The notes under the pieces: generated by a model
What the model was told of the DNA's origin: nothing
Databases searched by the model: none
The model's input: the letters and a program-made list of their open reading frames with translations, nothing else
Position numbers and translations under genes: made by a program
Shown: one piece after another, positions 31,444-50,598 of the stretch
How the letters are laid out: each line of letters begins with the position of its first letter
Numbering within the stretch: the first letter of the stretch is position 1
Source: a virus
IMG/VR virus record: IMGVR_UViG_3300025133_000023
Strand: one strand, 5' to 3'
DNA length: 64,000 bases

Positions 31444-34400
31444 TATTCAGAAGTCTCCTTATCAAATCTCCACTTATCGTCGAGCGTCATATCGCCCTTA
31501 TAAGCAGTAGCAACATTGTAGCCATGTAGCTGTGCAGCTAGAATCTGGGATAGGCGTCCCTCGCGAGCGTTCTTAATAGCTGACTTAGCATTCCCTGCAA
31601 AGTTATCCCAGCCAGTCTCAAACAAATCTTCTGGAATTCCTGCAATCCAAGGCTCTCCATTCCTCATAAGAGGAACAACATTAACAGCGATCTGCTGTTT
31701 AGCCCAGAACCAAAAGTTGTACATGTTAAGGAAAGTGTCAGCAACCTTAGGCTCAAACACGGAGGCAGCTGCCTCAATCACTACTTTAGCCCTTTCAGGC
31801 CTGTTCTCAATCTCGTTAGCAATACTGCCGGTAGTTACTCTTGGGACACCTCCAATAAAGTTAACGATGTTCTGCTGGAAGAAAGAGCCTGTGCTCCAGA
31901 GCCCGCTCCCCAACTTAGCCCGATTTAGACGATTAAGAATAACACCAGCAGATAGCCCGCTCAATACTGGGAAGCTGGCTACCTCATTGGAAATAACGAC
32001 AGCGTCTGGGGTAATGACAGAAATGAAACCATTCTCTGGAGTGAAAATATGGGTAACTTCCTCGACTTCAATTGGTCCAGCGATACCGTTATAGTCATCA
32101 GCTAACATAATAATATCATAAGGCTTGATTCGAGCATTACCAATAAGGGTGATAGAACCCTTATACATGTCTCGTAGCCCTTTCATAATAGACGCAACAC
32201 CGTAACGAGTGGCAAGCTGTTTACCATTACAGTTGAAGAAGTCGATATTCTCAGCAAGAACATCTTCATCAGGCATAGAGCTGTGAGCCTTCATCTCAAG
32301 AGTGTTCCACCAGTTAGCTCCAGAGTTCTTCTTACCCATTCTTGTTCTTGCGCGAGTGCTTTCATCAAAGTCAAATAGTTTCTCTGTGCTAGCGTCCCAA
32401 CTCTTAGTATAGGTAACTGAAACAGCATTCCAAACACCATAACTTGAAACTGCAATGTTGTTTCCAACAAGATTAATGGAAGAGCTAGCAAGATGATACC
32501 CACGGAAGGGCTTAAATCGAGCATTCAGTCCTTCAATATATTCAGCAATTAACAAGTGGAAAGCTTCCTTATTTTCATAGCTTCGGTTGGTTATCTCGGC
32601 AAGGTCTTCATCAAGCCTCCTAAGAATACCTTTTCGAAGCGTGGTCATCCTTTCCTTATAGCTTGTGGGAACAGGACGAGCCCAGTATCTCTGACTTGGG
32701 ACTCCAAAGAACATTGTCATACGCCGACCGTAGGGAACAGGAGATGCAATCCACCCAGGATGCCTTAGGGTCATCTCTTGGAAGACATCCCAAACAGTTG
32801 TGTTCATTAAGAAGTACATGATATCATTGGGGTGCATCTTCCCAGTCACGTCGAAGACCCCCCAGTCAACAATATCTTCTACCGATGGAGCAAAGACATT
32901 ATCGTCTACAGGGTTGTTGAGCCTATGTCGCATTTTATACTTAAACTCTGCATCAGAAGTATAGAGGGCATCAGCTGCTTCGATTGCACCAAGGGCTAGA
33001 ACTGCTCCGACTGAAATCGGAGCGGCCAGCGGCATCACCACGGCTCCAACAGCACCAGTAGCGATAGCTCCAGCGATTCTCCATAGACTCCAGTGAGGCT
33101 TAGAGTGAATCGTTGTGCGTGACTTACGTGGGCCAAAAATTTCTGGACGAGGAGGCCTGGTTCCGTGCTCTAGTTCGAAGTCAGCTTGCTGAGCCTCTCC
33201 TGGCTGGAATGTAGACCCATAGGTGAACCTGCCAAAGTGCAAAACCTCAGGCGACTTGAGCATTGTGTCAAGGAGCTCGGCAGTGTCTACATAACCGTAA
33301 GCTCTCGAGAGAGTCCTATTATTCATAACCTCATCCCCCTTCATCTTCTTACCAGAGACGCCCTTTTCTACAGCGACAAGCTCAGCTGCATAGGACTGGG
33401 CCATGATGGAAACATGATCGTTGTTGTCACCCCAGCTGACTTGAAGGACACGACCATTGAAAAGGTTCTCCATGTACTGAGGGTTGTTAGCAAACCCAAG
33501 ACGGAGGCGAATGTCCATGCCCTCTCTGAGAACTATAGACTCAAATCGCTGCTTAGAATTATCTGCTTGGCGTCTTTCATCAGCTTCATTAGCCCTACCT
33601 GTAGTTGCCCCATTCTTAGTTTCCCTACCGATGTAGTCAATGTCTCGCAGTCCGGCAGGCATTGTTCCGTCAAGAACACCACCAACATTCTGAAGCTCAA
33701 TAATAACCAGGTCTGCTGGGATCTTACGGCTGCGTGTACAGGTGATCTTTTTAACAGCGGAGTAGCCGTAGAAATCGCTAAGGGATCTCCACCCTTCGGT
33801 CCCGTTGTCATCAACGAATTCAATCTTAAAGGTTGGAAAGGCTCTCCTCATCAAGAAGATTCCTTCACTGAGCATCCCGTTAGCAGACTCAAGACATAGC
33901 TGCTGGATAGCCTCATCCCCATAGATGTGGTCTGTGTTTTTGTTCCCACTAAATACACCAGCCTCCTTAGAGGCCATGCGCCCAGTAGCCCCATCAACAA
34001 AGTCATTCTCTGCTTCCATGAAGTCTTTAAGGTCCTCGGATGGCTCATAAACCTTAATAGAAGATCGCGTGTTGCCTTCACCGCCATCTCCACTACCGTC
34101 TGGGACTGCAAGCTTATCTGCTATTTCTGTATCCTCTAGTTCTTCTTTGAGCTTCTTGCCACTTGAGAAATCCTTCAAACTCCCCCAAGCATTGCTAGCA
34201 CAAGTACGGAGCTGGGCTTCCCATGGAACCCCACTAAGGTCATCCACTCCACCATCTTCGCTTGGATTATAGAAGTAAAAGTCAGGGTAAGTCATGACAC
34301 GACTATGCATGATTGGGTGAGTGGGAAGAATAAGATCAGGATATGCATCTGGCATGTGAGCATATGCGCTCTTCCTTGCAAGGGCAATAGTCTCGGGGAA

Positions 34401-37400
34401 ATGCTGGTCATCTCTGTCTACAAGATCTGCAATGATTTGCTGGATCATGTTTGCCCAGCCCCTCTTGTAAATCTCATAAATAGACCTCTCCAGTTCAGGA
34501 GAAGTGTGGGTTCCGAAAAGAAGACGGTCATCCTCGGGAGTGTAACGAACTATAGTCTTAGTTCTGTTCCGAGATACTGGGAGAATCTCCGTTGTTCCTC
34601 TGGCTCGAATTGCGGCAAGCTCCGCTCTTACACTTTCTGTGTGTTCAGAGCCAGTAGCGACTCTAGCCTCATAGGCTCCAATAGGCCCTTGAATACCTCG
34701 CACAGCATATTTGTTAAAGGTAAGATTCGCATACTCTTCCCAAAGAGCATCAAGCTGATCATTGTGCCAACCCTTGGTGGATTCTTGCTGAGCAAAGGAT
34801 GATCTATTAGTAAGGGAATCCACCCAGGCGGTATGCTCCGGATAGGTTAATGAAAGGGTTGCCCCGCTTCCAGAAACATACTGTCTTCTATTCCCAAACA
34901 TTGGGAGGATCACTTCTTCAAAGCCCCACAAATCAAATTCTGCTTTAATCTCAGCTTCAGTAAACCCTCCATACCACTTATCACTGAAGACATGACAACC
35001 TAGAAGGAGACGCAAAATCACCTGATTGACCATGTTTTCCGCATAGCTACTTTCTCCAGTTGGGTATTTGTTAGTGTAGTCTGCGTACCATTCTCCAGAG
35101 TTGTTCAGTTCAGGCCTATTGACAGCTACACCGTCTCGATGAACCTCTGTGCCAGGTCTTCTGTTGAGGGTGCTTGCGACGGTAAAGAACTTCCTCACCT
35201 CTTTGAAGAACTGACGGAAGACCTCGTCCTTGTCATAGGTTACGCTTTCGAGCACAACGTTGTGGAACTCAGCACTTGCGTCAAATTCCATTTGAATCTG
35301 ATACAAGCCAGGAGAGCCTGGGATAGAGCTAGTACCCATGCTGCTGATAACCCAATTAGATGATCCGGCAAGATTGCTTCCAATGAAGTCAATGTTTGCG
35401 CACCATGCCATGGGAATGTTTCTAAACTTCCGAGCATTGTATTCAAGAGTAGCCCTCATGCTCCAAAGCTGACGAGCTTCTGGGGAGAGACTATCTAGCC
35501 TCCTATCTCCGTCATAGGTTCCCTTCTTAGCCTCACGTCCTAGACGGTCTACGCCTTCTTGCTCGAAGGTGCTATTAAGGTCAAGAGCCTGGAAGAAGAT
35601 CCGCGCCTCCTGTCCTCCCATGTACTGAGCGGTAGGAAGCTCATGTCCAACAAGAGGAATACTAGCAAACCTGTTAAGGAGCTCAACTCCCCACACGGTA
35701 ATGACTGTTCCATCCTTAGGCCTGTTTCCACTGGAAACAATAATACGCCTGGGACGATAGAGAGTAAGGGGAACATGAGGACTGTTATAGAGATGCCACC
35801 CTTCTTCCTGCAAGCTTATAGCTTCGAGCTTTGCTGCGTCTCGCTCCTCTTGAGTTGGCTCTTCATACTTGAATTCCTTAGATGGACTAACATCTTCTAC
35901 TTCAATAGCATCAGCCCGAGCAACTACACCTCCAGCTGCATCCACAATGCCTGGGTTTACATTCTCGATATTCATTAGGCGAGGCTCGCCACCCATGTCA
36001 GGATTTGGAGAACCATTCTCCCATAGCTCAACGTGAGCGTGAACACCGTGAACTCCACTCGTGCCACTTCCTCTGTCTGCGTTAGACGTTCCGGCATTGC
36101 CAACCTGCTGTCCAACCGTAACAAAGGCTCCGTTTCTTGGAAGGCTGGCATTCTCCATGTGTCCTATGCGAACCCAAAGACCGTCATGATCGCCGGTTCC
36201 TTGGATTACAATATACCCACCAAAAGAACCAGAGGGATTTCCTCCTCCTGTTGTATATCGGATGACACCATTGATTGGACTATGAATAGATGTGGTTGTT
36301 CTGCTGTCAGTTCCACCCCAGGCAATGTCTGTCCCCTTATGGCTTCTGCTTCCGCCAGAAGGGGTCGAGCCTCTTGGCCCAACTCCATCACCCACACTAC
36401 CGACATTGTTAGTAACGACCATAGCCGTACCAACACCTTCGTAGACCTTTTCATTTCCATTAATAGTTCCAGTGCCAAAGACACTAGAGTCGAGCCCAGG
36501 GATACGATCGGCTCCACTGTAGGTGTCGGCGCTGTGACGAATCTTTGCGAAGGACTTATGTAGGAGTTTACCTAGAGCAGTGTTCGGAGAGAGAGCCGTA
36601 TATTCTCTATAGTCGAAGATAACATTTTGACCAGGACTGAATTGCCCGTAGCTAAACGGAATTGGATTAAACTGACTGGTATGGCCGCCGGTCACCCCTC
36701 CAACACGAGTGAGGCTATTGTCAGTTCGATATCTGTTTCTTTCGAGTCGGGAAGTCTTTGCACTATTTCTAACGGCATCAATCATTCCAAAACCATCAAA
36801 GTCTCGCTCCATGGCAATGGCTTGGAGATGATTCAGATAAAGAATGTAAATGTTTGATTCATTAGCAGAGACAGGATTCGTTGGAAGGTTGGGAACAATA
36901 GGAGGAGTAACGTCTGTGAACTCCATAAACTTAGCCTTTTGGATAAGGTCTGTTGGTTCATCAGACTGAGCTGTAGGGAAACTTGATCCTGCTGGAGGGC
37001 GAATATCGCTGCCTCCCCCGTCTTCAATCTCTAAGATGGTTACTTCTTTTCCGCTCTTCCTTTTAAAGCGCCAGTTTTGTTTGTAGCTAAAGAGTGGGCT
37101 AAAGGGGGAGTAGTTGAACCATGACAACATAAGCTGAACGGACAATGCATCAGGGTTCTCTTCGATAGAAGTGATGGTCATGGCTTCAGCACATACAGCC
37201 ATAGGAACAGCATCAGTCGCATTGGCAAGCATGACGGACCGAATGTAGTTATTTTCTATTTCCCAAAATGGGGTGTACTTGAACTGCTGGATTAACCTAT
37301 GAAGCTTCCAGACCTCTCCTGGGAGGACAATCATGGTTAGGTTGATTGCAGCTATACCTCGGCCCGTTTTCGTCTTGGACGAAGTTCGAGATCTTAGATA

Positions 37401-37523
37401 AGACGATTCATTAATAGCCCCACGATGAGATATAGAAATATCTGTAGGTGGAACGATAAACCCAAGGTCATTAAATCTAAAGTATCCTTCTTGGACCTGT
37501 TGATATGAATTAAATGCTGTCAT
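31443..37523 (-). CDS. Giant baseplate hub/central tail protein with embedded M23 peptidase
   Basis: SHKGTDIA (HxxxD, His codon 36339-36341), IHSPINGVI, GHM, HGVHAHVEL (HxH, 36033-36041). C-terminal half has a hub-like DIRLRLGF...LFNGRVLQV and YKGSITLIGNARIKPYD. Confidence 0.8.
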   Translation of the reverse strand: MTAFNSYQQVQEGYFRFNDLGFIVPPTDISISHRGAINESSYLRSRTSSKTKTGRGIAAINLTMIVLPGEVWKLHRLIQQFKYTPFWEIENNYIRSVMLANATDAVPMAVCAEAMTITSIEENPDALSVQLMLSWFNYSPFSPLFSYKQNWRFKRKSGKEVTILEIEDGGGSDIRPPAGSSFPTAQSDEPTDLIQKAKFMEFTDVTPPIVPNLPTNPVSANESNIYILYLNHLQAIAMERDFDGFGMIDAVRNSAKTSRLERNRYRTDNSLTRVGGVTGGHTSQFNPIPFSYGQFSPGQNVIFDYREYTALSPNTALGKLLHKSFAKIRHSADTYSGADRIPGLDSSVFGTGTINGNEKVYEGVGTAMVVTNNVGSVGDGVGPRGSTPSGGSRSHKGTDIAWGGTDSRTTTSIHSPINGVIRYTTGGGNPSGSFGGYIVIQGTGDHDGLWVRIGHMENASLPRNGAFVTVGQQVGNAGTSNADRGSGTSGVHGVHAHVELWENGSPNPDMGGEPRLMNIENVNPGIVDAAGGVVARADAIEVEDVSPSKEFKYEEPTQEERDAAKLEAISLQEEGWHLYNSPHVPLTLYRPRRIIVSSGNRPKDGTVITVWGVELLNRFASIPLVGHELPTAQYMGGQEARIFFQALDLNSTFEQEGVDRLGREAKKGTYDGDRRLDSLSPEARQLWSMRATLEYNARKFRNIPMAWCANIDFIGSNLAGSSNWVISSMGTSSIPGSPGLYQIQMEFDASAEFHNVVLESVTYDKDEVFRQFFKEVRKFFTVASTLNRRPGTEVHRDGVAVNRPELNNSGEWYADYTNKYPTGESSYAENMVNQVILRLLLGCHVFSDKWYGGFTEAEIKAEFDLWGFEEVILPMFGNRRQYVSGSGATLSLTYPEHTAWVDSLTNRSSFAQQESTKGWHNDQLDALWEEYANLTFNKYAVRGIQGPIGAYEARVATGSEHTESVRAELAAIRARGTTEILPVSRNRTKTIVRYTPEDDRLLFGTHTSPELERSIYEIYKRGWANMIQQIIADLVDRDDQHFPETIALARKSAYAHMPDAYPDLILPTHPIMHSRVMTYPDFYFYNPSEDGGVDDLSGVPWEAQLRTCASNAWGSLKDFSSGKKLKEELEDTEIADKLAVPDGSGDGGEGNTRSSIKVYEPSEDLKDFMEAENDFVDGATGRMASKEAGVFSGNKNTDHIYGDEAIQQLCLESANGMLSEGIFLMRRAFPTFKIEFVDDNGTEGWRSLSDFYGYSAVKKITCTRSRKIPADLVIIELQNVGGVLDGTMPAGLRDIDYIGRETKNGATTGRANEADERRQADNSKQRFESIVLREGMDIRLRLGFANNPQYMENLFNGRVLQVSWGDNNDHVSIMAQSYAAELVAVEKGVSGKKMKGDEVMNNRTLSRAYGYVDTAELLDTMLKSPEVLHFGRFTYGSTFQPGEAQQADFELEHGTRPPRPEIFGPRKSRTTIHSKPHWSLWRIAGAIATGAVGAVVMPLAAPISVGAVLALGAIEAADALYTSDAEFKYKMRHRLNNPVDDNVFAPSVEDIVDWGVFDVTGKMHPNDIMYFLMNTTVWDVFQEMTLRHPGWIASPVPYGRRMTMFFGVPSQRYWARPVPTSYKERMTTLRKGILRRLDEDLAEITNRSYENKEAFHLLIAEYIEGLNARFKPFRGYHLASSSINLVGNNIAVSSYGVWNAVSVTYTKSWDASTEKLFDFDESTRARTRMGKKNSGANWWNTLEMKAHSSMPDEDVLAENIDFFNCNGKQLATRYGVASIMKGLRDMYKGSITLIGNARIKPYDIIMLADDYNGIAGPIEVEEVTHIFTPENGFISVITPDAVVISNEVASFPVLSGLSAGVILNRLNRAKLGSGLWSTGSFFQQNIVNFIGGVPRVTTGSIANEIENRPERAKVVIEAAASVFEPKVADTFLNMYNFWFWAKQQIAVNVVPLMRNGEPWIAGIPEDLFETGWDNFAGNAKSAIKNAREGRLSQILAAQLHGYNVATAYKGDMTLDDKWRFDKETSE

Positions 37524-37526
37524 AGA

Positions 37527-40500
37527 TTAATAGTGATCAATTGCTGATGGGTAGAGGGGCCGACGGTTGTCGTTAATTCGTGTTCGAATATTTGCCCCAG
37601 GACGACGTCTGCGATATTCAGAGATGGCTCTATCCATTTCGCTTGACTGCATGTTCGCTCCCGTTCGTGCGCGACTTGTTGTCCCGGTAGAGGTGACCCT
37701 GGCGGTGGGAGAATGGGTCACGCCACTTCTTCCAGGCATTGCAGACTGAGGAGCTACTCCCTGTGGGGTGATATTGGCAGCAGGCATGTTAAGCATACTT
37801 CCATCTTGAATGTGCTGTAGCAGTCTAGGATCAAGCCCAGCCTCATCTCCTAGGGGAGCTCCACCATAGCCAGGACCACCCATTACACCCTGCATTAGGG
37901 CTGTTCCTGCAAGGCCTATAATCGCTGCAGTGCCTAGTGTTCTCTTGTGTTTTCCGAGTTCCTTAGTAGAGACGTTAATCTTTCCTAGCATCTCTTCGAC
38001 AAACCCAGCCATAGTGCTTTGGCGATTGACTGTGCTTACAGCCCGAGCCAACTGATCTTCACCAGCCATGCCATGCTCTATAGCATACCGAGCAGCCTTA
38101 AGTGTATCATCTAAAGACATATTGCGCTTGGCTCTGCTTAAGTTGAAGACCCTTCTCTTGATGCCACCTTCTTCATTCTGGTAGTTAGCCATGACGGTCA
38201 TGAGAGCTTTTCTGTCAGCTTCACCCCAGGCGAATCTCTGAGACTTTCCACCAATCTCAATATTGTAGCCTGACCTAATGTTTCCCTTGCCCATGAAGAT
38301 GTCTTCCATAACCCCAATGAACCTGCCAGTGTCCATTTGAGCTTTTGTGGAACCTTGTGGTCCATAGAGAGCTTTGATTAATTCATCTCCAACATTCATA
38401 GCTTCAGGAAGATGACGAGATTTTAGAGTAGCTGTTTCTTCAACAGCACTAAGGATAGAGTAGATTTTAGATCGCTGCTGCTCTGGCATATCCTCAAGGA
38501 GCATAGCGTATTTGACTTCCTCAAGGGTCCTCGAGACGCGCCCAACATCTTTACCGTAGAAGAGCTTTTTGGATTGCTGAATACGTAGATCACTGACAGC
38601 TTCTTGACTGTAGCCCTTTCTTTGCCCATAGTCGATCATACTATCAAAGACATCTTTGTTAACCTTCTTCTGCCAAACCATTGCATAGTCATATTGCCGG
38701 GCGATCTTTTCCATAGCGCCTTTTCTGCGCATCATGCGAACACCATCTGGGTCGGTCATGAGCTTAACGAAAGCCCTATCCGCGTCATAGTCCATACCCA
38801 TGCCTGGAGCAAGGCCTAGCTCGTAGTCGCTCTTCACCCCATTAACGGTAACGCTAACCAGTCTTTGAGCAATCTTGATGATCTCTTGATCCTTAGAGGA
38901 TCCTCCAGTGTAGACAGCAATTCGAGCAGGCTGAATAGATCCCTGATAAGCAGCAGGCATTCGGCCAACGATACCCGACCAAGAAGCCTCCCCTCTAAGA
39001 AAGGCTCCCTTCTCAAGCTTGCTAGGCAGGGTTCCGGCATCTTCCATTTCGCCAACAAGTCGCTTTGCCAGTTTCTGACTAATGAAGGCCGTGTTGCCAT
39101 CGGCTAAGTCCATCCCAACCCGAGTATTAATTCCTTCCCTAGCGCCAATCATGCTATCTTCAAGGATGTCACTAATAGCTGGCAAGCCAGCAACCTGAGC
39201 ATAGGAAGAGCCTGCCCCAAGCTTATTCTTAGTGAGGCTCCTCTTCGCGGACTGGTAAAGGCCAACAACCCCTGCCATTCCGCTTTGCTCATGTCCACTC
39301 ATGATCCGAGCTAGGCGGGTGTCCATGTCAAGATCCTCATATCCATCAGGAGCCAACAGCTGGAACATCTTTTTAACCTGATTACGGTAAGCCTTTTCCT
39401 GCAGCTCACCACCCTGTGCACGAGCATAGCCAGCTGTGCGGATCTCTGCCCCTAGCTCAGCGCTCACAGACTGCATACCAGGGACGTGCCAAGAGGTAGA
39501 CATACCTCTAGCCTTAAGGGCTCCATGCATTTCCTTTGGCATTTCTACTACAGCACCCCTGCCACGGAACCAATCTTCCTGAGTAATGTCTGCAAGACTC
39601 TGGGAGGCAAACTTCACTCTAGGTAAGCTTTCATCTATCTGGGTAGCGTCACCGGTCATGCTCCAAAGCATCTTGCCAATAGCATTGAAGTCATCAATAG
39701 TCGCAGCAGAGGAGGTGCTTCCATAGATGTCCCTAACAAGTGCTTCTGTTAGGTTCTCCCCACCAGACATGATCTGCTTGCTAAGGAGCATGTCAAAGTT
39801 ACGAGCCTCAACACTTCCCATACGGCCCTGAGCCAGATGGGGAAAGTCACCTATAAACTGCGATGAGCCTCCAATAGCCATTTTAAGTCTAGCAAGGCCG
39901 GCTACGTGACCGGAGTCTTTAAAGACACCAGTAAGCATTGACTCATAAGCAGCAACGGCTTCTGGACTACCTTGCTTTCCGCCATAGAAAATGCTACCGC
40001 CACCAAAGACAAGTCCAATTGACTCGCTTCGACCTAGCCCCAGAAACTTCGCTTTCTCAGCGACAGCACGTAGGATATCGGGAACTTCCTGTCCCGCAGC
40101 GTTGAGTGTCTTTCGTGTAGTATCATAAAGCTTACCTTGATCTTGAGCTAGGAACTGCTTAAGCCTAAGCATCTGTGGAGTCTCCCCCAAGGTTGCATTC
40201 AGCTTATCAAGACTGCCTCTGGCAGCAGCGAGGTCTGCCCTCCATGAGGCTGGTGAGCCATAATCGATAAGTCGCTTCTCTAGACCACGCTTTTTATCTA
40301 CAGCAGCAAGTGTTTTTTGAACATCGAAACTTTCAATTGGTGCCGAACTTAGCTTTCCTAACATAGCCCTTGCTTTCTTATAGTCCTTTCTAAGCTTATT
40401 CAATTCTGGATGCTTTAGACCGATCTTCTTCTCAAGATTAAGGATTTTACCCTTTAGCTTAAGCAGGTCCTCGGCAGCCTTAGAGTTATCAAGATACCTC

Positions 40501-42833
40501 TTCTGCTGAAGCCCTTCAAGCTCTTGTCCTGCAACAATCCTAAGTCCACTAACTGCCTGCTCGTGTACAGCGAAGAGGTCCTTCGTGAGAGGAGAGGTGT
40601 TGGTGATTTGGTCAATATGCTGAGCAAGCTTACTCATTTCCTTTACAGACATTCCCATGTGCTTTGCTAACTGAGCTAGATTCTTATCCATTATCTCTTC
40701 GGAACGAATCTTCAAAGTTGTTTTTGTTCCATGGAAAACCTTCATATGCTCAACAGCATCGATATCCTGCTTCACATGGAGACGTAAATATCCTTCATGG
40801 GAAAGCGTTGCCCCAACAAGAGTCTCTGACACATAACTTTCACCCGCAGCTCTAATGACCTGCCCAGACTTAGTTCCTGAACCAAGGCCTAAAGCCTGAC
40901 CTCGGCCTAGACTAATTCCACCTTTGGTTTCTGCAATACGTGCTCGAATAGCTTGAGCCATTTCTTCTGGGCTAAGGTTCCCAGCCGATAGCTTCTTAAG
41001 GGTTGCTTCTCCAAGAGGCAGACTAACAGGGGAGCCAGGCGCAGCAATAATATTGTAGCTCTTTGTCTTTTGAGCTCTTAAAGCTTTAGAGAAACCTTCA
41101 CGAATAAAAGACTCACCATCCATCATCCCCCATCGACGCAAGATGCCTGGGATTTTGCCTGGCTGACCATCTGCCCTAATCCCATCACCCAGGACATGCA
41201 AGGTAATAGCAGAAGGAGTCACATAACCGAACCCCTTCATGAATAGGTCCTTATACGTTGCTCCAGCATTCACTGGAACAAATCTCTTGAGAGCGCTGAC
41301 AGTCTTGACTGAACGACGACCTGTCCCCTTATCAAAGGCTCCCTCAATTTGAAAGCTTGGCCCCATGCCAACACTTTGGAGATGCTTAGAGTCCATAAGG
41401 TCAAGGACAAACTTCCCATCGTGTCCCTTCTTTCCCCACTCCTTGCGAGCTGTCTCTGTAGGAGTCCAGTTTAAATCTCTGACAAGCTGGAACAGCCTTC
41501 GACTTCGGTCAAAGCTGTGCTGGTCTTTAAACAAGTTCAATAGATTGTGAGAAGGACCACCGGGGGCTATTCTGAAGTGAGCCATATCGACAAACCCACC
41601 CCTGGTCAAAGTACCAGGACCAATAGCTTCTACGCTTGGGTTCTTCCTCATAAAAGCTTCCATCATGTCTGCAGTGTAGTGATCGTCTCCTAGAGCGGCT
41701 GGATCAAAGACGGTATTCCGAGCAAAGGCAGCGCGTAGCCTTTCCCCTGGAGTGGAGTGACTAGTTTCAAACTGACCAATCTTTCTCAGATCTGAATAGA
41801 AGCCTCTATAGGACATCGCTCTGTCTGCTCCAGACATACCTCCCATCTTCACAATCTGTGCGGCTAACTTATCATTTACAGACTGATTCGACCCAAGAAC
41901 ATGACCCACAGAGAAGATCGACATACCCTTAGGAGAAACAACTCGCTCTCCTGTTGGGGTTCTTTTCCCTTTGGGGCCTAGACTCTCATTCCCAAAGATA
42001 AACCTAAACTCTCGCTTGCTTCCTTTATACTTCACATTGAGTTCGCGGAAGGTAGAGCCATCTCTTCCTGTTAGCTTATGCATCGTCATGTGAGCATTAA
42101 CCTTAGCTAGTCCAGCACTTCTTCTCCATCCCTTAAAGCTTGCAACCTCTTCTCTTTCAAAGAAGTCAGGAACCTTCATCTCGCTACCAGCACCAAGGAA
42201 GCCCATGTTGCTATAGAAGCTACTAAGCCCATGCTTCTCCCAAAACATTCCAGTGCCAATAATCTGTCCACCCTTAGCTACACCTCCCCTGCGGGGACCG
42301 TGTTGTCCTTTAATGTCGATATACTTACTGGGATCAAGCATCTGCCACTTCTTCCAGAGAATGCTTGCATCACTACTGGACATTCCGGAAACAATTCCCT
42401 GCATTCGAGAAGCATAGGCAGTACGGTCTCCACTTGATCCTAGGGCTTGCTTGGACATTGACTGTGCTTCAAAGAGCGCCTGAAGCATGTTCTGTTTGTT
42501 AAGGCTTACTGCTGGGTCTGCAATAGCTGCTGCATAGGCAAAGGCTAGTCTCTTGGCTGAGTTGGGACCGAAGCTTCCACCCAGAGATTGCTTGAGCATT
42601 TTACGAGCATCCAGCACATTACCTGCAGCGTTCCTAGCAGCCAGACGCATACCCTTAATAGACCTAGCCGCCCTACCTGCTGCATCTGCTGCGGTAGTTC
42701 CCTGAGAAGCCTGGTTGGATTGAATGTCCCTATACACAGATAGTCCACCCAGACCCACAGCGCCCAACAATGGAGTGTAGGTGAAGACGGTGGCAAATGG
42801 GTTTCGACCCTTTCTGTTTTTATTGTCAGACAT
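37527..42833 (-). CDS. Putative virion-associated single-chain two-barrel (double-psi beta-barrel) DNA-dependent RNA polymerase
   Basis: Ordered motifs: MMDGESFI (D572), MKVFHGTK (K698/K704), IDQITNTSP, GRMGSVE (R1004), LTKNKLG..SYA, AFISQKLAKRL, IVGRMP (R1291), GMDYDADRAFV (D1348/D1350/D1352; nt 38778-38792), GRVSRTLEEV (bridge-helix-like), TLKSRH (trigger-loop-like H1474). By-eye alignment only. Confidence 0.78.
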   Translation of the reverse strand: MSDNKNRKGRNPFATVFTYTPLLGAVGLGGLSVYRDIQSNQASQGTTAADAAGRAARSIKGMRLAARNAAGNVLDARKMLKQSLGGSFGPNSAKRLAFAYAAAIADPAVSLNKQNMLQALFEAQSMSKQALGSSGDRTAYASRMQGIVSGMSSSDASILWKKWQMLDPSKYIDIKGQHGPRRGGVAKGGQIIGTGMFWEKHGLSSFYSNMGFLGAGSEMKVPDFFEREEVASFKGWRRSAGLAKVNAHMTMHKLTGRDGSTFRELNVKYKGSKREFRFIFGNESLGPKGKRTPTGERVVSPKGMSIFSVGHVLGSNQSVNDKLAAQIVKMGGMSGADRAMSYRGFYSDLRKIGQFETSHSTPGERLRAAFARNTVFDPAALGDDHYTADMMEAFMRKNPSVEAIGPGTLTRGGFVDMAHFRIAPGGPSHNLLNLFKDQHSFDRSRRLFQLVRDLNWTPTETARKEWGKKGHDGKFVLDLMDSKHLQSVGMGPSFQIEGAFDKGTGRRSVKTVSALKRFVPVNAGATYKDLFMKGFGYVTPSAITLHVLGDGIRADGQPGKIPGILRRWGMMDGESFIREGFSKALRAQKTKSYNIIAAPGSPVSLPLGEATLKKLSAGNLSPEEMAQAIRARIAETKGGISLGRGQALGLGSGTKSGQVIRAAGESYVSETLVGATLSHEGYLRLHVKQDIDAVEHMKVFHGTKTTLKIRSEEIMDKNLAQLAKHMGMSVKEMSKLAQHIDQITNTSPLTKDLFAVHEQAVSGLRIVAGQELEGLQQKRYLDNSKAAEDLLKLKGKILNLEKKIGLKHPELNKLRKDYKKARAMLGKLSSAPIESFDVQKTLAAVDKKRGLEKRLIDYGSPASWRADLAAARGSLDKLNATLGETPQMLRLKQFLAQDQGKLYDTTRKTLNAAGQEVPDILRAVAEKAKFLGLGRSESIGLVFGGGSIFYGGKQGSPEAVAAYESMLTGVFKDSGHVAGLARLKMAIGGSSQFIGDFPHLAQGRMGSVEARNFDMLLSKQIMSGGENLTEALVRDIYGSTSSAATIDDFNAIGKMLWSMTGDATQIDESLPRVKFASQSLADITQEDWFRGRGAVVEMPKEMHGALKARGMSTSWHVPGMQSVSAELGAEIRTAGYARAQGGELQEKAYRNQVKKMFQLLAPDGYEDLDMDTRLARIMSGHEQSGMAGVVGLYQSAKRSLTKNKLGAGSSYAQVAGLPAISDILEDSMIGAREGINTRVGMDLADGNTAFISQKLAKRLVGEMEDAGTLPSKLEKGAFLRGEASWSGIVGRMPAAYQGSIQPARIAVYTGGSSKDQEIIKIAQRLVSVTVNGVKSDYELGLAPGMGMDYDADRAFVKLMTDPDGVRMMRRKGAMEKIARQYDYAMVWQKKVNKDVFDSMIDYGQRKGYSQEAVSDLRIQQSKKLFYGKDVGRVSRTLEEVKYAMLLEDMPEQQRSKIYSILSAVEETATLKSRHLPEAMNVGDELIKALYGPQGSTKAQMDTGRFIGVMEDIFMGKGNIRSGYNIEIGGKSQRFAWGEADRKALMTVMANYQNEEGGIKRRVFNLSRAKRNMSLDDTLKAARYAIEHGMAGEDQLARAVSTVNRQSTMAGFVEEMLGKINVSTKELGKHKRTLGTAAIIGLAGTALMQGVMGGPGYGGAPLGDEAGLDPRLLQHIQDGSMLNMPAANITPQGVAPQSAMPGRSGVTHSPTARVTSTGTTSRARTGANMQSSEMDRAISEYRRRRPGANIRTRINDNRRPLYPSAIDHY

Positions 42834-42835
42834 TC

Positions 42836-45800
42836 TTATAGGCCATATCTCTTACGGAACTGATCTTCCTCGCCCATGCGAGAGTCGTTTACTTCAAGAT
42901 CAAGTGTGTGGCTTGGGTTAGCTGAAGAGTAGCTAATGGTCCTCATGTTAGTAGAGCTGAAACCATTGGCCCCAAAAGCTAAGTGACCCAAGTCTCGGTC
43001 ATTGGTGGGCTCAAAGTAATTTCCCTGAGCAATCACCTCATCTGTTAGATAAGGTTTTCTAGAGAGAAGACGCGACTGGCTTTCCCACATTCCATAATCA
43101 TGGATGTCTTTCCCTTGTTGCTGAACAACCCTTAGTTTAACATCTTCAAGGTCAACAGCAGGGTTAAAGCCAACCCAATCTACAGCAGGCATCGTGTCAC
43201 CAAGCTCAGCCTCAGTACGCTGCAGCTTTTCGAAGTCGCCAAACGACATCCAGCTAGGGGCTTCCTTTTCATATCTCGAATATCTGGCTGTGCTGAAATC
43301 TTCTCCAGCAGTAGAGCCCCAGTCTTGAACAAGCCGACCTAGCTTTTCATCTCCTGTTCTAAGATAGTCAGCCTTAAGCCATTGTGCCTCATAAATGCGA
43401 TGGAGAGACTCGGGTACTAAATCAAGGATTTCCTTTCGTCTTCGCTCGCTAGTGGTGCTAGCAAACGCCTCGAAGAAGTCTTGTTCCTCACGAGGCAAAG
43501 CAGCTTTCACAGCTGCAAGTCTATCAAATGGGTTGACTCCAGTTACCGTCTTACTGGCAAGCTTCTCGTAAAGAGAAGCGTTCCGTGTATCTCCAGCTTC
43601 ATGGGCCTGCTCTTCAAGCATCTTCCATTTATAGTATTCAAGCTTATCGTAGTGGTCATTGAATCCACGAATCGTCTTAATGTGTCCAGGGATGGCATCT
43701 ACACCGAACCAGTCATGGAGGGTCTGGTTAATGAATGGTCTGAACCAATCACGCCACATTTCCTTAAGTCCCCAGAAAGCGAACCGAGTACCATACACAA
43801 CAGTGTCTTCATACTCTGAGATTGGGTCAAGATACTTGAACAACTTTTCGACAGGGCGGAAGCCAAGAGGGATAATCTTAGAGGGACCAGAGAAGACATC
43901 ATGGATAACTTCATTGAAGCCCTTCCATGCCATGCCTGCTGCTCTGCCAACTAGCCCACGTCGCTTGGTGTTCTCGTTAAGAGCTGGAAGATAGCTTTGC
44001 CATTCTCTCTTAGCTCTCTTCTGCTGCATGCGAGACTCTGCTGCTTGAACAAACTTAAGAGCCTCTTCTCCAAACTGTCCCTGAGCTGTACGGAACTTGA
44101 CTGCTCTCTGAACTTCTCTGAATTCCTGAGACCATGCAGCAACATCACCAAGAACGGCATACTTGTAAACTAGCGGCCAACTTTCCGGATCCTTTCCTTC
44201 TAGTTCGGGGTGCAAGGCAGCGTAACCCTTGCCAGGTAGTCGATACTCTCCACCCGCTACATTGCTATAGGGATCACCGAAGCGTAGTTCTTCGGGCATC
44301 CAGCTAGGCATGTTGTTAGGGATGGGGTTGTACTGCTGTATGGAACTAAGAGGACGGGGGAAGAATCGACGGATTGGCTCAGACAAGAATCCAAAACCAC
44401 CTAGGTTCTGTTCCCAGTAACGCCTAGTCCATGAGTCAATAGCATTCGCTGACTGGAGCTGTGAGCCTTGAGTTCCTGGTACGTCTACTCCAGCAAGATG
44501 CTTACCAACCTCTCCCAAAGTGAAACCCCACAGACCGGGGCCTTCAACAAGGTTCTGATAAAAGAACTGACCCAGTCGACGTTTCCCGCTATAGGGACTG
44601 TCTGGAGTTCCTGGCTGCAGGCCACCCAGAGAATAGGCTGGCTGAATCTCCAGGGAGTTAGAGATGTGCTTCAGCTCTAGGCTACCTGTTTCTCTGTTAA
44701 CTCGAGCCCACTCTCCTACATGCATTAAGCGAGCTGGCTTAATCAGCTTGCCAATAGGATCGAGGAAGAGCTTAGCGAAAGGAACCTCTTCAAAGGCCTG
44801 CCCAGTAATTGGGTATGGCCTATCTTTATAGTTTCTTTCTTCTAGCTCATAGGTAAAGTGCTTACGATAGAACTTGCCAATAGGAGAGTGCCACGCACCA
44901 CCAACAGGGTTCCAGAAATCAAAGTCTTCGTCTTCACCCCATACGGACTTCTCAATAGCTCTCGACTTAGACAACGCCAACCAGTGAGGCTTGAAGTGAC
45001 TAATAGCGCCACCTTCCCAAGCAGTACCACCGCCTTCCCACCATCTACCCTTACGGACTGGCTGAAGCTTTCGTCCTTCATAGATCGCACTTAACTCTTC
45101 AGTAGTCTCAGACGTAGCAAGCTTTCCGGCAAGCACCGACCAAGCAGCAGCAGCTGTGACGAATCGCATACCCCAAGATGAGCCAAAGGGAAGACTCCAC
45201 TGTTTGATGTTCTTTATTCCACCAGCACGCCAGAACTTGTCACCTAGCTCAGAGCGAGCAATGACTCTCTTAGGGTTAGCCCCAGCCCATGCAGCTTGAA
45301 CCTGAAGCCCCATTCTCTTCCAGGGGTTCTCTTCTCCTACAATCCTAGTAGCCCAACTGATGTCGTGGTTGATTTGCTTGGTCATCCACTTCGGGATCTC
45401 TCCACCCTGGATGCCTTCTGTTACCGAGTGTCTCCAGGCAGAGCGTTTGGAGATTTCGTTAATAGCATAGACCGAGTCACGCATACGCTGCTGACCCTTA
45501 CTAAGGACAGCTCCGCCGGACTTCTTAGACTCATTAACTAATCCACGTTCATTATAGATGTTCCAGAACTGAGTAGCATACGTTCCAGTGCTAGCATGAA
45601 TTCGCTGAAGGATTGTTCCACCCTTCATACTTGGACGCATTTCCTTACGAAGCATACGGTCTAGGACATGACCAACTCCCACACCAATAATACCCATACC
45701 AATAGCTGTTGAGCTATCAGTGGAGCCTGGCATGTTGGTTTCAAACCATCTTCTCCAGCCACTACCAATGAACGGGACGGGGCTGAGGGCATTCGTAACT

Positions 45801-47077
45801 GTTGATCGAAGCTTGTTTGCAATAGCTCCAACGTTTCCGAATCCAGCGAACAAGCCATCCCTGAAGGGAGGAAGCAGACTACCTACTGCACCAATAGCAG
45901 CTCCGCGACCAATGTGAGACCACTTCTTTCCAAAGATGCTTCCAAAGTAAGCGCCAGTAATACCAAAGGCAGCTGCTCCACCGACAGTATCATGCTGCTT
46001 TGCCCAGCTTGCAGAACTTAGGAGAAGCCCAGCCATGCCGACAGTCCCCGCCTTGCGGGCATACATGAATGAGTTCTTTAGGAAGCTTCCTTCTTTTCCA
46101 TAAAGCTTAAAGGGTAGCTGTCCACCAATGTCTGACAGGATAGGGATCTGCTGCCAAATAGTACGGATAAGCTCGTTGAGCCGACCACTACCAGCAGCCC
46201 CTACTAGGCGTCCCATATGGATAGCGGTGTCTGCTGGGCCTGCCCCTGTTACTGTGGGGATGTGTATTGGCAAGAACTCTAAGTTTCTACCAACAGCCTT
46301 AATGGCATCGTCCTCCATAGCAGAACCAACATGGTAACCAATACCAGCACGAACCTTGGAAATCTTCATCTCCTGTCCTGCAGTAGCTACTAGGCTGGGG
46401 GCTGTCTTGTGACTGTAGGCTTTGGAAGAAGCTTCACCGCTTCCATACTTCTGGCGTTCCCAATCTGCCTGAACCCTAGCCAACAGGTCTGGATTCTTAA
46501 TAGCAAGATCAGCCTGGATCATTCGCTGAAGCTCTCTAGCTCTACCGCGCTGACCCAACACTAGACGGTCTTGAACGAGCTCTCCTGACTTTGCGTTATA
46601 GGCTTTGTAGAAGACACTGTCTGCGGATTCTCTCTCAAGCCTTAGCCCGTGCTGTCCTGCATCAATAAGCTTATGGGGCTCTACCCCCATTACCGAAGCC
46701 ATCACCTCGCGGATGAACTTGTTCCCTCCATCAATGTTAAAAGCTTCAGGGGGCAAGAATGGCTTGAAGAGCTTCCCAGTAGCCTCCATAATCCGCTCAT
46801 GATCAACAAACGGAGACACCATAAATGGTAGTCTGAAGGTAGCCATCATGCCACCAGGCAGGACGAATCTCTCAGCTACTTGAAGGGTTCTGTAGGCTTT
46901 CGTAAAGCCTCGCTCTCCGCCATGGCGGAGCATCCCTACCCCAAAAACACCAGCGCCCACAGCAGCGCCAGTAGCCCAACCAAAGAGCTGCCTTCCTGTG
47001 GAAGGCTGTGTTAGCTCATCTTGGCGTTGGCTACTCCACGTTGTGTGCGGGCCGGAGTTTGAGTACAGATTGGACAT
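42836..47077 (-). CDS. Tape-measure-like/tail-lumen ejected protein
   Basis: 1413 aa, directly downstream of the tube and chaperone genes; several Gly/Ala-rich hydrophobic segments; basic and Trp-rich. Confidence 0.65.
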   Translation of the reverse strand: MSNLYSNSGPHTTWSSQRQDELTQPSTGRQLFGWATGAAVGAGVFGVGMLRHGGERGFTKAYRTLQVAERFVLPGGMMATFRLPFMVSPFVDHERIMEATGKLFKPFLPPEAFNIDGGNKFIREVMASVMGVEPHKLIDAGQHGLRLERESADSVFYKAYNAKSGELVQDRLVLGQRGRARELQRMIQADLAIKNPDLLARVQADWERQKYGSGEASSKAYSHKTAPSLVATAGQEMKISKVRAGIGYHVGSAMEDDAIKAVGRNLEFLPIHIPTVTGAGPADTAIHMGRLVGAAGSGRLNELIRTIWQQIPILSDIGGQLPFKLYGKEGSFLKNSFMYARKAGTVGMAGLLLSSASWAKQHDTVGGAAAFGITGAYFGSIFGKKWSHIGRGAAIGAVGSLLPPFRDGLFAGFGNVGAIANKLRSTVTNALSPVPFIGSGWRRWFETNMPGSTDSSTAIGMGIIGVGVGHVLDRMLRKEMRPSMKGGTILQRIHASTGTYATQFWNIYNERGLVNESKKSGGAVLSKGQQRMRDSVYAINEISKRSAWRHSVTEGIQGGEIPKWMTKQINHDISWATRIVGEENPWKRMGLQVQAAWAGANPKRVIARSELGDKFWRAGGIKNIKQWSLPFGSSWGMRFVTAAAAWSVLAGKLATSETTEELSAIYEGRKLQPVRKGRWWEGGGTAWEGGAISHFKPHWLALSKSRAIEKSVWGEDEDFDFWNPVGGAWHSPIGKFYRKHFTYELEERNYKDRPYPITGQAFEEVPFAKLFLDPIGKLIKPARLMHVGEWARVNRETGSLELKHISNSLEIQPAYSLGGLQPGTPDSPYSGKRRLGQFFYQNLVEGPGLWGFTLGEVGKHLAGVDVPGTQGSQLQSANAIDSWTRRYWEQNLGGFGFLSEPIRRFFPRPLSSIQQYNPIPNNMPSWMPEELRFGDPYSNVAGGEYRLPGKGYAALHPELEGKDPESWPLVYKYAVLGDVAAWSQEFREVQRAVKFRTAQGQFGEEALKFVQAAESRMQQKRAKREWQSYLPALNENTKRRGLVGRAAGMAWKGFNEVIHDVFSGPSKIIPLGFRPVEKLFKYLDPISEYEDTVVYGTRFAFWGLKEMWRDWFRPFINQTLHDWFGVDAIPGHIKTIRGFNDHYDKLEYYKWKMLEEQAHEAGDTRNASLYEKLASKTVTGVNPFDRLAAVKAALPREEQDFFEAFASTTSERRRKEILDLVPESLHRIYEAQWLKADYLRTGDEKLGRLVQDWGSTAGEDFSTARYSRYEKEAPSWMSFGDFEKLQRTEAELGDTMPAVDWVGFNPAVDLEDVKLRVVQQQGKDIHDYGMWESQSRLLSRKPYLTDEVIAQGNYFEPTNDRDLGHLAFGANGFSSTNMRTISYSSANPSHTLDLEVNDSRMGEEDQFRKRYGL

Positions 47078-47079
47078 GG

Positions 47080-47694
47080 TTATTCTCTAAGGGCTTTCTG
47101 TGCTTGCGCAATTTCTTCAGCGCTTACAACCCCATAACCAGTCTTTTGATTAATTTGCCTTGTGGTTCCGTCAGGATTTACTCCAACGGCAGGTGCTCCC
47201 TCCTCTAGGGAGTAGATAATGGCAGGCTCTGAGATCAATCCTTGATCAAGAAGAACACCTTCTGCCTGAGTAAACACCTGGATTATTTCGGGGAACGTAA
47301 GCTCATCAAGCTTATCCATAGTATACCCTGAAAAGACTCTGCAGATAGTTGTCTTCATCATTAGGTCTATTTGCTGTGACTTAGTTCTGCAAGTCACAAG
47401 CATGGCGTTCTGATAGTTAGTGTCTCCAGGAGAAGACAGCTCTACGATGAGTAAGGCTACTGTCTGGACAATACCTGCTTCGAGAGTCTCTCGATAATCT
47501 TTGTAGTAGTCTTCGCTGACACACTTATCAAACAAATAATCAAACAGCACCCAATCATCAACATCCTCTGAATCCAGAGCGGAGCTGATGACTTTATATT
47601 CTCCATAGTTCAGAAGCCGAAAAGGGATCACACGACTATCAAAAAGCTGAAAGCCATAGAGATCCCCTTTGGCCCCAATCCTGTAATCAAGCAT
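47080..47694 (-). CDS. Tail assembly chaperone (paralogue 2)
   Basis: Between tube and tape measure; FRLLNYGEY...DKCV...AGIVQTV...IVELS aligns with the upstream gene. Confidence 0.6.
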   Translation of the reverse strand: MLDYRIGAKGDLYGFQLFDSRVIPFRLLNYGEYKVISSALDSEDVDDWVLFDYLFDKCVSEDYYKDYRETLEAGIVQTVALLIVELSSPGDTNYQNAMLVTCRTKSQQIDLMMKTTICRVFSGYTMDKLDELTFPEIIQVFTQAEGVLLDQGLISEPAIIYSLEEGAPAVGVNPDGTTRQINQKTGYGVVSAEEIAQAQKALRE

Positions 47695-47722
47695 GGGGTT
47701 TTATTATCCTAGCAGTTAAGGA

Positions 47723-48253
47723 TTATAGTCTTAGAGTCTGACGAAGGGCCTGCTCTGTTGGCATGAAGTAGCTTCCAGCCATGATAACTTCGTAAAGAAG
47801 ATTCTTCAAACCTGCTGGCTGCTTGTCTGCCTTAACTGGATCTAGAATATTCTCTCGTGGCCACACGATACATCGTGCCAACACCTGAGTCTGAATCCAT
47901 TCCTCAACCTTCTCTGGGTCAACGGCTGCAAGGCCTGACTGGATATCTCTCCACTCTCCCAACTCTAGATAACGCCAGACATACCAGTCGTCGTCCCTTA
48001 GGCTAAGGGCATAAATGGAAGTGTATCGTTCTCGCCATTCAGCGATTTGTTCTAGTGTTGGTCCGTCGACAAGAGACGTTAGGAGAGCCTCTGGGCCGTC
48101 CTGTACGGCCTCTTCTACTGTGGGAGTATCTGAGTCTACCTCGGGCTCGTCCAGAGCCTCCTCGGTTGTCTCAGCGGCCTCTAGTTTGGCCTCTTCTTCT
48201 CTCTGCCGCTTAGCGGCTGCTTCTTTAGCAATTCTTTGTGCTGCAGATGACAT
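47723..48253 (-). CDS. Tail assembly chaperone (paralogue 1)
   Basis: EQIAEWRERY...YVWRYLELGEW...ARCIVWP...AGLKNLLYEVIMAGS; acidic N-terminus; position after the tube genes. Confidence 0.65.
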   Translation of the reverse strand: MSSAAQRIAKEAAAKRQREEEAKLEAAETTEEALDEPEVDSDTPTVEEAVQDGPEALLTSLVDGPTLEQIAEWRERYTSIYALSLRDDDWYVWRYLELGEWRDIQSGLAAVDPEKVEEWIQTQVLARCIVWPRENILDPVKADKQPAGLKNLLYEVIMAGSYFMPTEQALRQTLRL

Positions 48254-48254
48254 A

Positions 48255-48944
48255 TTAGGTTACTTCCCTGCAAATAAATGGGTATTGTTCTAGGACAGGC
48301 TCACCTTCTACAGTGATCGTTTGTCCAAAACCCGTAAGTTGAACTTGGCGCAATGTGCGCACTGCGGAAAGAGTAAAGCTAGGTTGGTTATCCTGGCTTC
48401 TCAGTTGATTACCAAACGCATCACCATAGGTGACGATAATATCGAAAGGTAGGTAGTGATCGTCTGGGCGAGCAAGGCTAGTGCTACTTAACACATCCTG
48501 CCTAGATAGCTCGGAGCCTGCGTCTCCACCCCAGAACCTTCTTTTAAGAGTGTCTCTATCTTGACCTGCATGATCGGGGTCGCTTGGGTTTACCAAAGCC
48601 TGGGCACTCTGTCCCAGCTTCTTTTCAAACTTGTTTGTGTAGAAGTCTGATTCTACATCAAGACCATGGGTTCGTGCGATTAAAGTTGGAAGAAACTGCG
48701 CATACTGAAAGTTAACCATGAGAAATCCAGAACACTGGACCGTTCCCCAGGCAACCCCATCCCACAGTTGGGACGCATATCCCCACACTGGTCGCTTATT
48801 TTGGACTAGAGAAAACTCTATGCCCACCGCCGTTCCGATTAGGATCTCGCGAATATAGAGGCCGATATTGGAACCAGTAAAGTAATCATAGGTAAAATGA
48901 GAGGTATCATTATTATCATATCCGCTACGGTAGGTCTTTGTCAT
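48255..48944 (-). CDS. Tail tube-fold protein (paralogue 3)
   Basis: YFTGSN...PVWGY...LPFDIIVTYG...VQLTGFGQTITVEG...EQYPFICRE; shares its framework with the two upstream genes. Confidence 0.72.
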   Translation of the reverse strand: MTKTYRSGYDNNDTSHFTYDYFTGSNIGLYIREILIGTAVGIEFSLVQNKRPVWGYASQLWDGVAWGTVQCSGFLMVNFQYAQFLPTLIARTHGLDVESDFYTNKFEKKLGQSAQALVNPSDPDHAGQDRDTLKRRFWGGDAGSELSRQDVLSSTSLARPDDHYLPFDIIVTYGDAFGNQLRSQDNQPSFTLSAVRTLRQVQLTGFGQTITVEGEPVLEQYPFICREVT

Positions 48945-48946
48945 TG

Positions 48947-49819: not shown

Positions 49820-49840
49820 AGGAGAGAGTTCCTTTTGCTA

Positions 49841-50533: not shown

Positions 50534-50558
50534 GTTTTACTTATCCTCCCTGGATAGT

Positions 50559-50588
50559 TTGGTGGGGCCATATTTCAGACCCCACCAA
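50559..50588 (-). promoter_or_regulatory. Stable intercistronic hairpin between sheath and tube (no U-tract)
   Basis: Minus strand TTGGTGGGG-TC-TGAAATAT-GG-CCCCACCAA: 9 perfect bp plus one G-U and one G-C pair; followed by ACTATCC, then the SD at 50544-50550. Confidence 0.7.
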
Positions 50589-50598
50589 GTCTGTTGTC

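Follow-up and report, generated by a model that had tools for sequence, protein, structure and literature searches.

Here we report an open reading frame (ORF) of a virus known from marine metagenomes, P0001, whose product of 1768 amino acids (aa) is, on balance, probably a single-chain two-barrel polymerase, most likely a DNA-dependent RNA polymerase (RNAP), delivered by the phage tail. The ORF occupies positions 37527..42833 (-) of a 64,000-nt stretch of the IMG/VR virus record IMGVR_UViG_3300025133_000023 (the window); it starts with ATG and has no internal stop. The window is contained in a single virus record of 189,645 bp with a CheckV completeness of 100%, and this phage sequence is carried by marine metagenomes among public runs, of which some are probably its source, with no RNA dataset among the runs listed as carrying it. 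An earlier interpretation made from the letters of the window (hereafter the sequence-only reading) had proposed that the ORF encodes a fused beta-beta' RNAP which is loaded in the tail and injected to transcribe early genes. As described below, both halves of the protein were matched in fold to the corresponding RNAP subunits, the residues expected to be catalytic were conserved in very divergent homologues, and the gene was found in the same place of a conserved tail gene block, while the activity and the delivery by the tail are proposed from these observations.

Predicted fold of the 1768-aa protein

An AlphaFold model of residues 440-1620 was built from a 17-sequence alignment, with a mean predicted local distance difference test score (pLDDT) of 69.4, mostly 70-90 in the core, and a predicted template modelling score (pTM) of 0.49. 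Because this model tested the beta-like half weakly, residues 525-1050 were also modelled alone (pLDDT 75.6, pTM 0.68). When the first model was searched against the PDB with Foldseek, all 50 of the best matches listed were RNAP beta' chains or beta' fragments of the phiKZ/AR9 enzymes (probability ~1.0 and best E-value 9.6e-4 for the beta'-like half), and with the second model the 50 best listed were all beta/Rpb2 chains. In an unbiased search of 48,161 chains with each of the two models, the cognate subunit family again stood exclusively at the top. The C-terminal half also matched isolated double-psi beta-barrel (DPBB) domains. Since two separately built and separately searched models each found their own cognate subunit, we accept the two-barrel fold, and on these models the protein very probably consists of a beta part followed by a beta' part. 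The sequence-only reading had staked its proposal on the presence of double-psi barrels in a structural model, and the predictions bore it out, giving a beta-like N-terminal half, a beta'-like C-terminal half and DPBB domains.

The arrangement of the modelled parts can be described as follows, all on the minus strand. The beta-like module (residues ~532-1011; 39801..41240) is predicted to hold the second double-psi barrel, which is of the beta type and carries two basic residues, and it is interrupted by a long helical, coiled-coil-like insertion (residues ~753-896; 40146..40577) that was assigned by DSSP in both models and is poorly conserved. The beta'-like module (residues ~1060-1603; 38025..39656) is predicted to contain barrel A (residues 1208-1381; 38691..39212), a beta'-type DPBB with a DxDxD metal-binding loop, and it is followed by two conserved helices assigned by DSSP (residues 1430-1476; 38406..38546), which are candidates for the bridge helix and the start of the trigger loop. 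These helices lie inside the range aligned with Rpb1, which ran from about residue 20 to 1460 of Rpb1 and covered model residues 621-1164; the correspondence is one of ranges, not of single residues. A shape search of the ESM Atlas returned RNAP clusters only, and one match was a 1006-aa protein with Rpb2 and Rpb1 domains that aligned over model residues 24-1170. The clade, multisubunit or single-subunit, is not settled by these searches, because rows within one Z unit are ties.

Motifs and conservation in the family

The sequence-only reading rested on eleven RNAP-like motifs in the order expected for beta and then beta', and all of them were recovered (residues 570, 682, 740, 1003, 1200, 1249, 1288, 1318, 1346, 1431 and 1469). 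The Escherichia coli motifs used for comparison are genuine (rpoB 1050, 1094 and 1268; rpoC 341, 366, 422, 446, 458, 794 and 930), and the two sets are collinear, the motifs at 682, 740 and 1003 following the rpoB series and those from 1200 to 1469 the rpoC series. As such short motifs prove little alone, their conservation among homologues was examined. A word-index search gave only two relatives (74% and 38% identity), compared with 15 from a profile search that covered 1.84 billion representatives exhaustively, and no relative was confirmed by an IMG/VR scan with a 3-sequence alignment; the protein family is rare. In an alignment of 13 full-length homologues with 17-77% identity, 18 columns were invariant, including G573, K698, R1011, R1291, P1293, D1348, D1350, D1352 and E1466, the last of which lies in the candidate bridge-helix and trigger-loop region. 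Seven of these 18 columns fell inside the motif segments of the sequence-only reading, which had been picked without sight of the homologues and make up 7.4% of the protein (binomial P = 1.8e-4).

Three conserved elements are candidates for the active site. The putative metal-binding triad D1348-Y-D1350-A-D1352 (38778..38792, (-)) keeps its three Asp residues in all 13 homologues, with the variants DFDKD, DxDAD and DxDGD. Upstream of it, R1291-M-P1293 (38955..38963, (-)) forms an [RK]xP element comparable to NRAPTLH of beta', with R and P invariant. The basic pair K698...K704 (K-x5-K; 40722..40742, (-)) would be the equivalent of beta K1065/K1073; K698 is invariant, position 704 is K or R in the 13 homologues, and the spacing varies from x4 to x9. 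The signature [RK]xPx{20,100}DxDxD is a published filter for two-barrel polymerases (PMC10770324 Suppl. Data 4), and it is present in P0001, where DYDAD follows R1291-M-P1293 by 54 residues, and in 12 further family sequences. P0016 and P0017 have a longer insertion between the two elements, and two short fragments do not include the region. One divergent family member in the same synteny, P0007 (L012:10001-15463; 22% identity), additionally carries a DNA_pol_A_exo1 3'-5' exonuclease domain (residues 234-389, E 4.3e-27) in front of its polymerase-like part, as would suit an enzyme that acts on nucleic acids.

Terminal regions

Outside the two modules, the Ala-rich N-terminal region (residues 1-520; 41274..42833, (-)) has no Pfam match, and model confidence is low for residues 440-540. 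For residues 60-520, language-model features hint at tape-measure families (scores 0.86-0.87 with few shared features, a lead only). Hydrophobic segments had been noticed at both ends of the protein, and we located them at residues 13-31 (42741..42797, (-); Kyte-Doolittle mean 1.38), where the segment is kept in homologues, and at residues 1633-1651 (37881..37937, (-); mean 1.53), where it is of the membrane type. The protein ends in a conserved basic tail with the pattern R-I-x-D-x-R-R-P-L (residues 1740-1768; 37530..37616, (-)), in which D1755 is invariant and R1757 nearly so. This tail has a weak match, to be taken as a lead only, to the extreme C-terminus of ORF146 of Bacillus phage 0305phi8-36 (E 0.073), a protein that is relevant to the gene order described below.

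Sequence searches

The kinship indicated by the fold was not visible in sequence comparisons. Neither Pfam nor PHROGs gave a match to the 1768-aa protein, and tblastn against 50,697 phage records gave nothing. With phmmer and a 13-sequence profile, no relative was found among PDB sequences; the best match was T4 internal protein I (E 0.44), which was dismissed as chance. In hhalign comparisons, the family profile reached a probability of 0.65% with residues 1-1200 of P23-45 gp96 and below 1% with E. coli beta and beta', although the top beta' alignment coincided with the AFISQKLAKRL / CGLPKKMALEL pair of the sequence-only reading. Probabilities were likewise below 1% with ORF145 and ORF146 of 0305phi8-36 and with gene 36 of Acinetobacter phage ME3, and nothing was found when the profile was run over the whole genomes of 0305phi8-36, which is reported to hold a YonO-like gene (PMC7824862), and ME3. 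Because there is no profile match, we do not place the protein in the canonical PF00623/PF00562 families, which it resembles in fold only.

The phage itself was searched for other polymerases. PF00623 (RNA_pol_Rpb1_2) and PF00562 (RNA_pol_Rpb2_6) matched each of 14 control genomes but, at a threshold as loose as E 10, nothing in the complete genome of this phage. In the complete 189.6-kb genome we also found no sigma70 region 2, no paralogue of the family, no other RNAP and, in a search run without a positive control, no T7-type RNAP. The phage encodes a DnaE-type polymerase, a primase and a ribonucleotide reductase. For a phage of this size, a single RNAP candidate that is encoded in the tail module is consistent with an injected enzyme. 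A 10-mer enrichment search of the intergenic DNA for a phage-specific promoter yielded tRNA T-loop words only; these words are repeated across the intergenic DNA, and the phage thus has several tRNA genes.

Gene order in the tail module

All ORFs of at least 100 aa with a family match in the window lie on the minus strand, and in the direction of transcription they run from the portal and major head protein through the tail sheath, three tube-like paralogues and two small ORFs to a 1413-aa ORF, the 1768-aa ORF, a 2026-aa ORF with an M23 peptidase domain, three small ORFs and a baseplate J-like wedge. The 1768-aa ORF is separated from its co-oriented neighbours by 2 and 3 nt, and is therefore considered part of the late structural operon. 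The sequence-only reading had placed it between a tape-measure-like gene and the hub. The hub assignment stands: the downstream gene (31443..37523, (-); 2026 aa) is a baseplate hub with M23 peptidase, homologous to 0305phi8-36 ORF147 and ME3_37. The other half of the claim needs correction, as the upstream gene (42836..47077, (-); 1413 aa) is a membrane-rich homologue of 0305phi8-36 ORF145 and ME3_35. Its first ~650 residues have hydrophobic and Gly-zipper segments, and the homology to ORF145 and ME3_35 lies in its C-terminal half. A classical tape measure was rejected for this gene in view of the many membrane segments and the globular-looking C-terminal half; the product looks more like a membrane-inserting ejection protein. 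Instead of being a stand-alone RNAP, as had been suggested, the 1768-aa product may be the counterpart of the tape measure in this module.

A survey of synteny in related phages, which the sequence-only reading had called for, supported the association with tail genes. The block of a 1.2-1.5-kaa (thousand-residue) membrane protein, the 1768-aa family, a ~2-kaa M23 protein, three small genes and baseplate J was kept in metagenomic loci whose family members are 38%, 24%, 22% and 19% identical; the gene order persists at identities as low as about 19-24%. One related locus has an insertion of an Endonuclease_7 (homing-type) gene (L014:15824-16120) within the group of three small genes that separates the hub from baseplate J. 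By sheath and hub, the closest cultured phages are 0305phi8-36 and ME3. In 0305phi8-36, the sheath gene is followed by the tube, tube paralogues and two 'tail chaperonins', after which come ORF145, ORF146 (annotated 'hypothetical tape measure protein') and ORF147 (annotated baseplate hub), and ORF145 and ORF146 are virion proteins by mass spectrometry. As the 1413-aa gene corresponds to ORF145/ME3_35 and the 2026-aa gene to ORF147/ME3_37, the 1768-aa gene occupies the ORF146/ME3_36 slot. Cysteine is absent from the 1768-aa and 1413-aa proteins, and also from ORF145, ORF146, ME3_35 and ME3_36. The lack of cysteine, the hydrophobic ends, the basic C-terminal tail and the tape-measure-like features would suit a protein that is threaded through the tube and inserted in the envelope.

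The remaining members of the module were assigned as follows. The sheath (50599-52443) and the three tube-like paralogues together span 48255..52443 (-) and have PHROG matches, and the sheath also gave tblastn matches to the sheaths of ME3 and 0305phi8-36. The three successive paralogues (48255-50533, (-); 230, 290 and 229 aa) all match phrog_9206, and tube paralogues occur in 0305phi8-36, too. Two small ORFs of 204 and 176 aa (47080..48253, (-)) stand at the position of tail chaperone genes, judged only from position relative to ORF143/144 of 0305phi8-36, and have no PHROG match. The conserved block ends with the baseplate wedge (J-like) gene (28862..30091, (-)), which matches phrog_6 and corresponds to Baseplate_J in homologous loci. 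Outside the window, a 1241-aa protein with a staphylococcal-nuclease domain (C1:16947-20672 = L005:947-4672) shares the lack of cysteine with the 1413-aa and 1768-aa proteins, and it may be another ejected protein. At the ends of the record, three copies of a ~25-bp repeat containing GGTAGGGTT are present at the contig start (C1:1-100), and the first 20 nt of the contig recur at position 189494 (C1:189494-189645), pointing to overlapping ends in the assembly of a circular or terminally redundant genome.

Proposed mechanism

From the fold and the conserved residues, we think it quite likely that the protein is an active polymerase. The beta-like barrel would supply K698 and K704, the double-psi barrel of the beta'-like part would bring R1291-x-P1293 together with the metal-binding D1348, D1350 and D1352, and the helices at 1430-1476 would serve as bridge helix and trigger loop. 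Regarding its location, the gene order and the features of the terminal regions lead us to favour, if somewhat narrowly, delivery by the tail. The protein would be made late, together with the tail proteins, and would be built into the tail lumen or the baseplate, as the tape-measure equivalent or beside one, with its Ala-rich N-terminal part and conserved C-terminal tail holding it there. Upon infection, sheath contraction would expel it with the 1413-aa membrane protein and the M23 hub, the hydrophobic segments would anchor it at the cell envelope, and the first genes of the entering DNA would then be transcribed without the host polymerase.

Alternative explanations

Several points weigh against the proposed tail-delivered polymerase. 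The motifs are not canonical, with DYDAD in place of DFDGD and K-x5-K in place of K-x7-K, and no sequence-level link to any RNAP is found in the Pfam, PDB-profile and hhalign searches. The models are of middling confidence, with mean pLDDT of 69 and 76 from alignments of 15-17 sequences, and the pTM of 0.49 for the whole model leaves the mutual position of the two barrels not established. The support for its presence in virions is indirect and comes from the late structural operon, the conserved synteny, the relationship of the flanking genes to ORF145 and ORF147, the virion protein ORF146 in the equivalent position, the lack of cysteine and the terminal hydrophobic segments. Furthermore, ORF146, its positional equivalent in 0305phi8-36, has no DxDxD at all and no detectable similarity, and that phage is reported to encode a YonO-like RNAP elsewhere in its genome (PMC7824862); the slot is therefore not always occupied by a polymerase. 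This last point, together with the tape-measure annotation of ORF146, the deviating motifs, and the tape-measure flavour of the long helical insertion and Ala-rich ends, would suit a structural tape-measure or ejection protein which kept or acquired an RNAP-like fold and has no polymerase activity. We regard such a protein as quite unlikely, since invariance down to 17% identity is seen at the positions that catalysis needs (three Asp, RxP and Lys), which a purely structural role would not hold, and DxDKD variants of the fourth position are listed for the profile of the phiKZ-type non-virion RNAP (PMC10770324 Suppl. Data 4). An active two-barrel RNAP could also be stored elsewhere, packed in the head like the virion polymerases of N4, crAss-like phages and phiKZ, or be a non-virion enzyme sharing the late operon. 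All known virion RNAPs except P23-45 gp96 are carried in the capsid (PMC10770324), a polymerase core of ~1100 residues is hard to fit in the lumen of the tube, and no measurement here puts the protein in the tail. Even so, a location outside the tail seems unlikely to us: very divergent relatives have the gene in the same slot, after the chaperone-like genes and before the hub, the protein has hydrophobic segments near its ends and a conserved C-terminal tail, it shares the lack of cysteine with its ejected-looking neighbour, and its N-terminal part has weak tape-measure-like features, which are a lead only.

The chemistry of the enzyme may also differ from that of a DNA-dependent RNAP, and the protein could be a QDE-1-like RNA-dependent polymerase, an enzyme that starts replication as a primase does, or a PolD-like DNA polymerase. 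This is improbable given that the best matches of both halves are DNA-dependent multisubunit RNAPs and reach the bridge-helix/trigger-loop range, that PolD is absent among the matches listed, and that genes for a DnaE-type polymerase and a primase are already present in the phage. Finally, if the fold matches were artefacts of AlphaFold models from shallow alignments and the motifs were due to chance, there would be no kinship with RNAPs. It would then be hard to see why two separate models each placed the cognate subunit family exclusively on top among all chains searched, why the motif order is collinear with both rpoB and rpoC, and why the conserved residues coincide with the catalytic ones at the P-value given above, and we consider an artefact very improbable. 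A polymerase delivered by the tail thus continues to be the reading that we prefer.

Comparison with known systems

Compared with the cellular enzymes, including natural rpoB-rpoC fusions, the 1768-aa protein has the same order of domains and motifs, and cellular beta/beta' chains were its best structural matches overall. The match to cellular beta, however, spans only its C-terminal half, and cellular RNAPs have no counterpart of the N-terminal 520 residues or the C-terminal membrane tail. The phiKZ/AR9 RNAPs (PDB 7OGP, 8QUE and 7S00) consist of four or five polypeptides, whereas here one fused chain is found; their virion form resides in the head, their genes lie outside the tail module, and they are recognised by Pfam, while the 1768-aa protein is beyond the reach of sequence methods. 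phi14:2 gp66 (PDB 6VR4) is similar in being a single-chain two-barrel polymerase in a giant virion protein which is ejected, and it was found via a DFDxD motif, but it belongs to a podovirus, is capsid cargo and falls in the QDE-1-like clade. The 50 best structural matches listed did not include it, although it may still be related to the 1768-aa protein. The virion RNAP of coliphage N4 is a giant polymerase carried in the virion that transcribes the early genes of the entering genome, and in function it is an analogue of the protein proposed here, but its fold is a T7-like right hand rather than two barrels, and it travels in the capsid of a podovirus.

Among viral proteins of BFVD, the best structural matches included one from an uncultured siphovirus that is called a 'minor tail protein' (E 9e-7), as well as giant proteins of the Microcystis phages Ma-LMM01 and MaMV-DC (entries A0A8S5SD80, A0A7R7G2L5, A0A7J4 and A0A075BUT7), and polymerase-like proteins of tail modules may be more widespread than the 1768-aa family. 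ME3_36, gene 36 of Acinetobacter phage vB_AbaM_ME3 (L021:11173-15984), is annotated as a 'hypothetical protein', occupies the same slot and encodes 1603 aa with no cysteine. Both halves of ME3_36 were matched to the model by Foldseek in BFVD (E 2e-4 and 3e-4), and it contains the collinear elements LGxxxxG, K-x6-K, R-x-P-x5-S-x-Q and DHDQD; there was no sequence-level match to the family profile. ME3_36 is probably a cultured relative of the family, and as ME3 is in culture, the proposal can be tested directly.

A phage that carries its own RNAP can start its programme without the host enzyme and so escape host control and rifampicin-type inhibition. To our knowledge, only one tail-associated two-barrel polymerase is known, that of the siphovirus P23-45. 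Literature searches found no description of the present family or arrangement, in agreement with the sequence-only reading, yet the novelty is narrower than that reading implied, a virion RNAP of the two-barrel kind that is associated with the tail being already known from P23-45. What is new is a family of probable two-barrel RNAPs without sequence relatives that has its own gene in the tail module of contractile-tailed phages, and we infer that it is of the virion type. If this is true, loading of a polymerase in the tail would be a recurring solution, a deeply divergent branch would be added to RNAP evolution, and a function would be given to a giant orphan protein between the tube and hub genes of 0305phi8-36-like and ME3-like phages; there would also be a physical problem to explain, namely the storage of a polymerase core of ~1100 residues in the tail tube and its passage through it.

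The closest precedent is P23-45 gp96 (PDB 8H2M/8H2N; PMC10770324), a virion RNAP fused to the tape measure, which was proposed to transcribe the entering DNA (PMC10770324). gp96 belongs to a siphovirus and the 1768-aa gene to a contractile-tailed phage, and the RNAP is at the N-terminus of a 5002-aa protein in gp96, while here it lies in the middle of a separate ORF of 1768 aa. In addition, gp96 is clampless and of the single-subunit clade, whereas both halves of the 1768-aa protein match multisubunit beta/beta' better, including the N-terminal part of Rpb1; in fold it is nearer to these and to the phiKZ/AR9 enzymes than to gp96. We also put forward, tentatively, a broader possibility: across a large lineage of contractile-tailed phages, comprising the marine relatives and probably ME3, the protein might be at once the tape-measure equivalent and an active fused RNAP of the beta/beta' clade, anchored in the envelope beside its 1413-aa partner and the M23 hub and coupling DNA entry to the first transcription. 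Storage of a polymerase in the tail lumen might then have arisen independently of the Thermus siphovirus.

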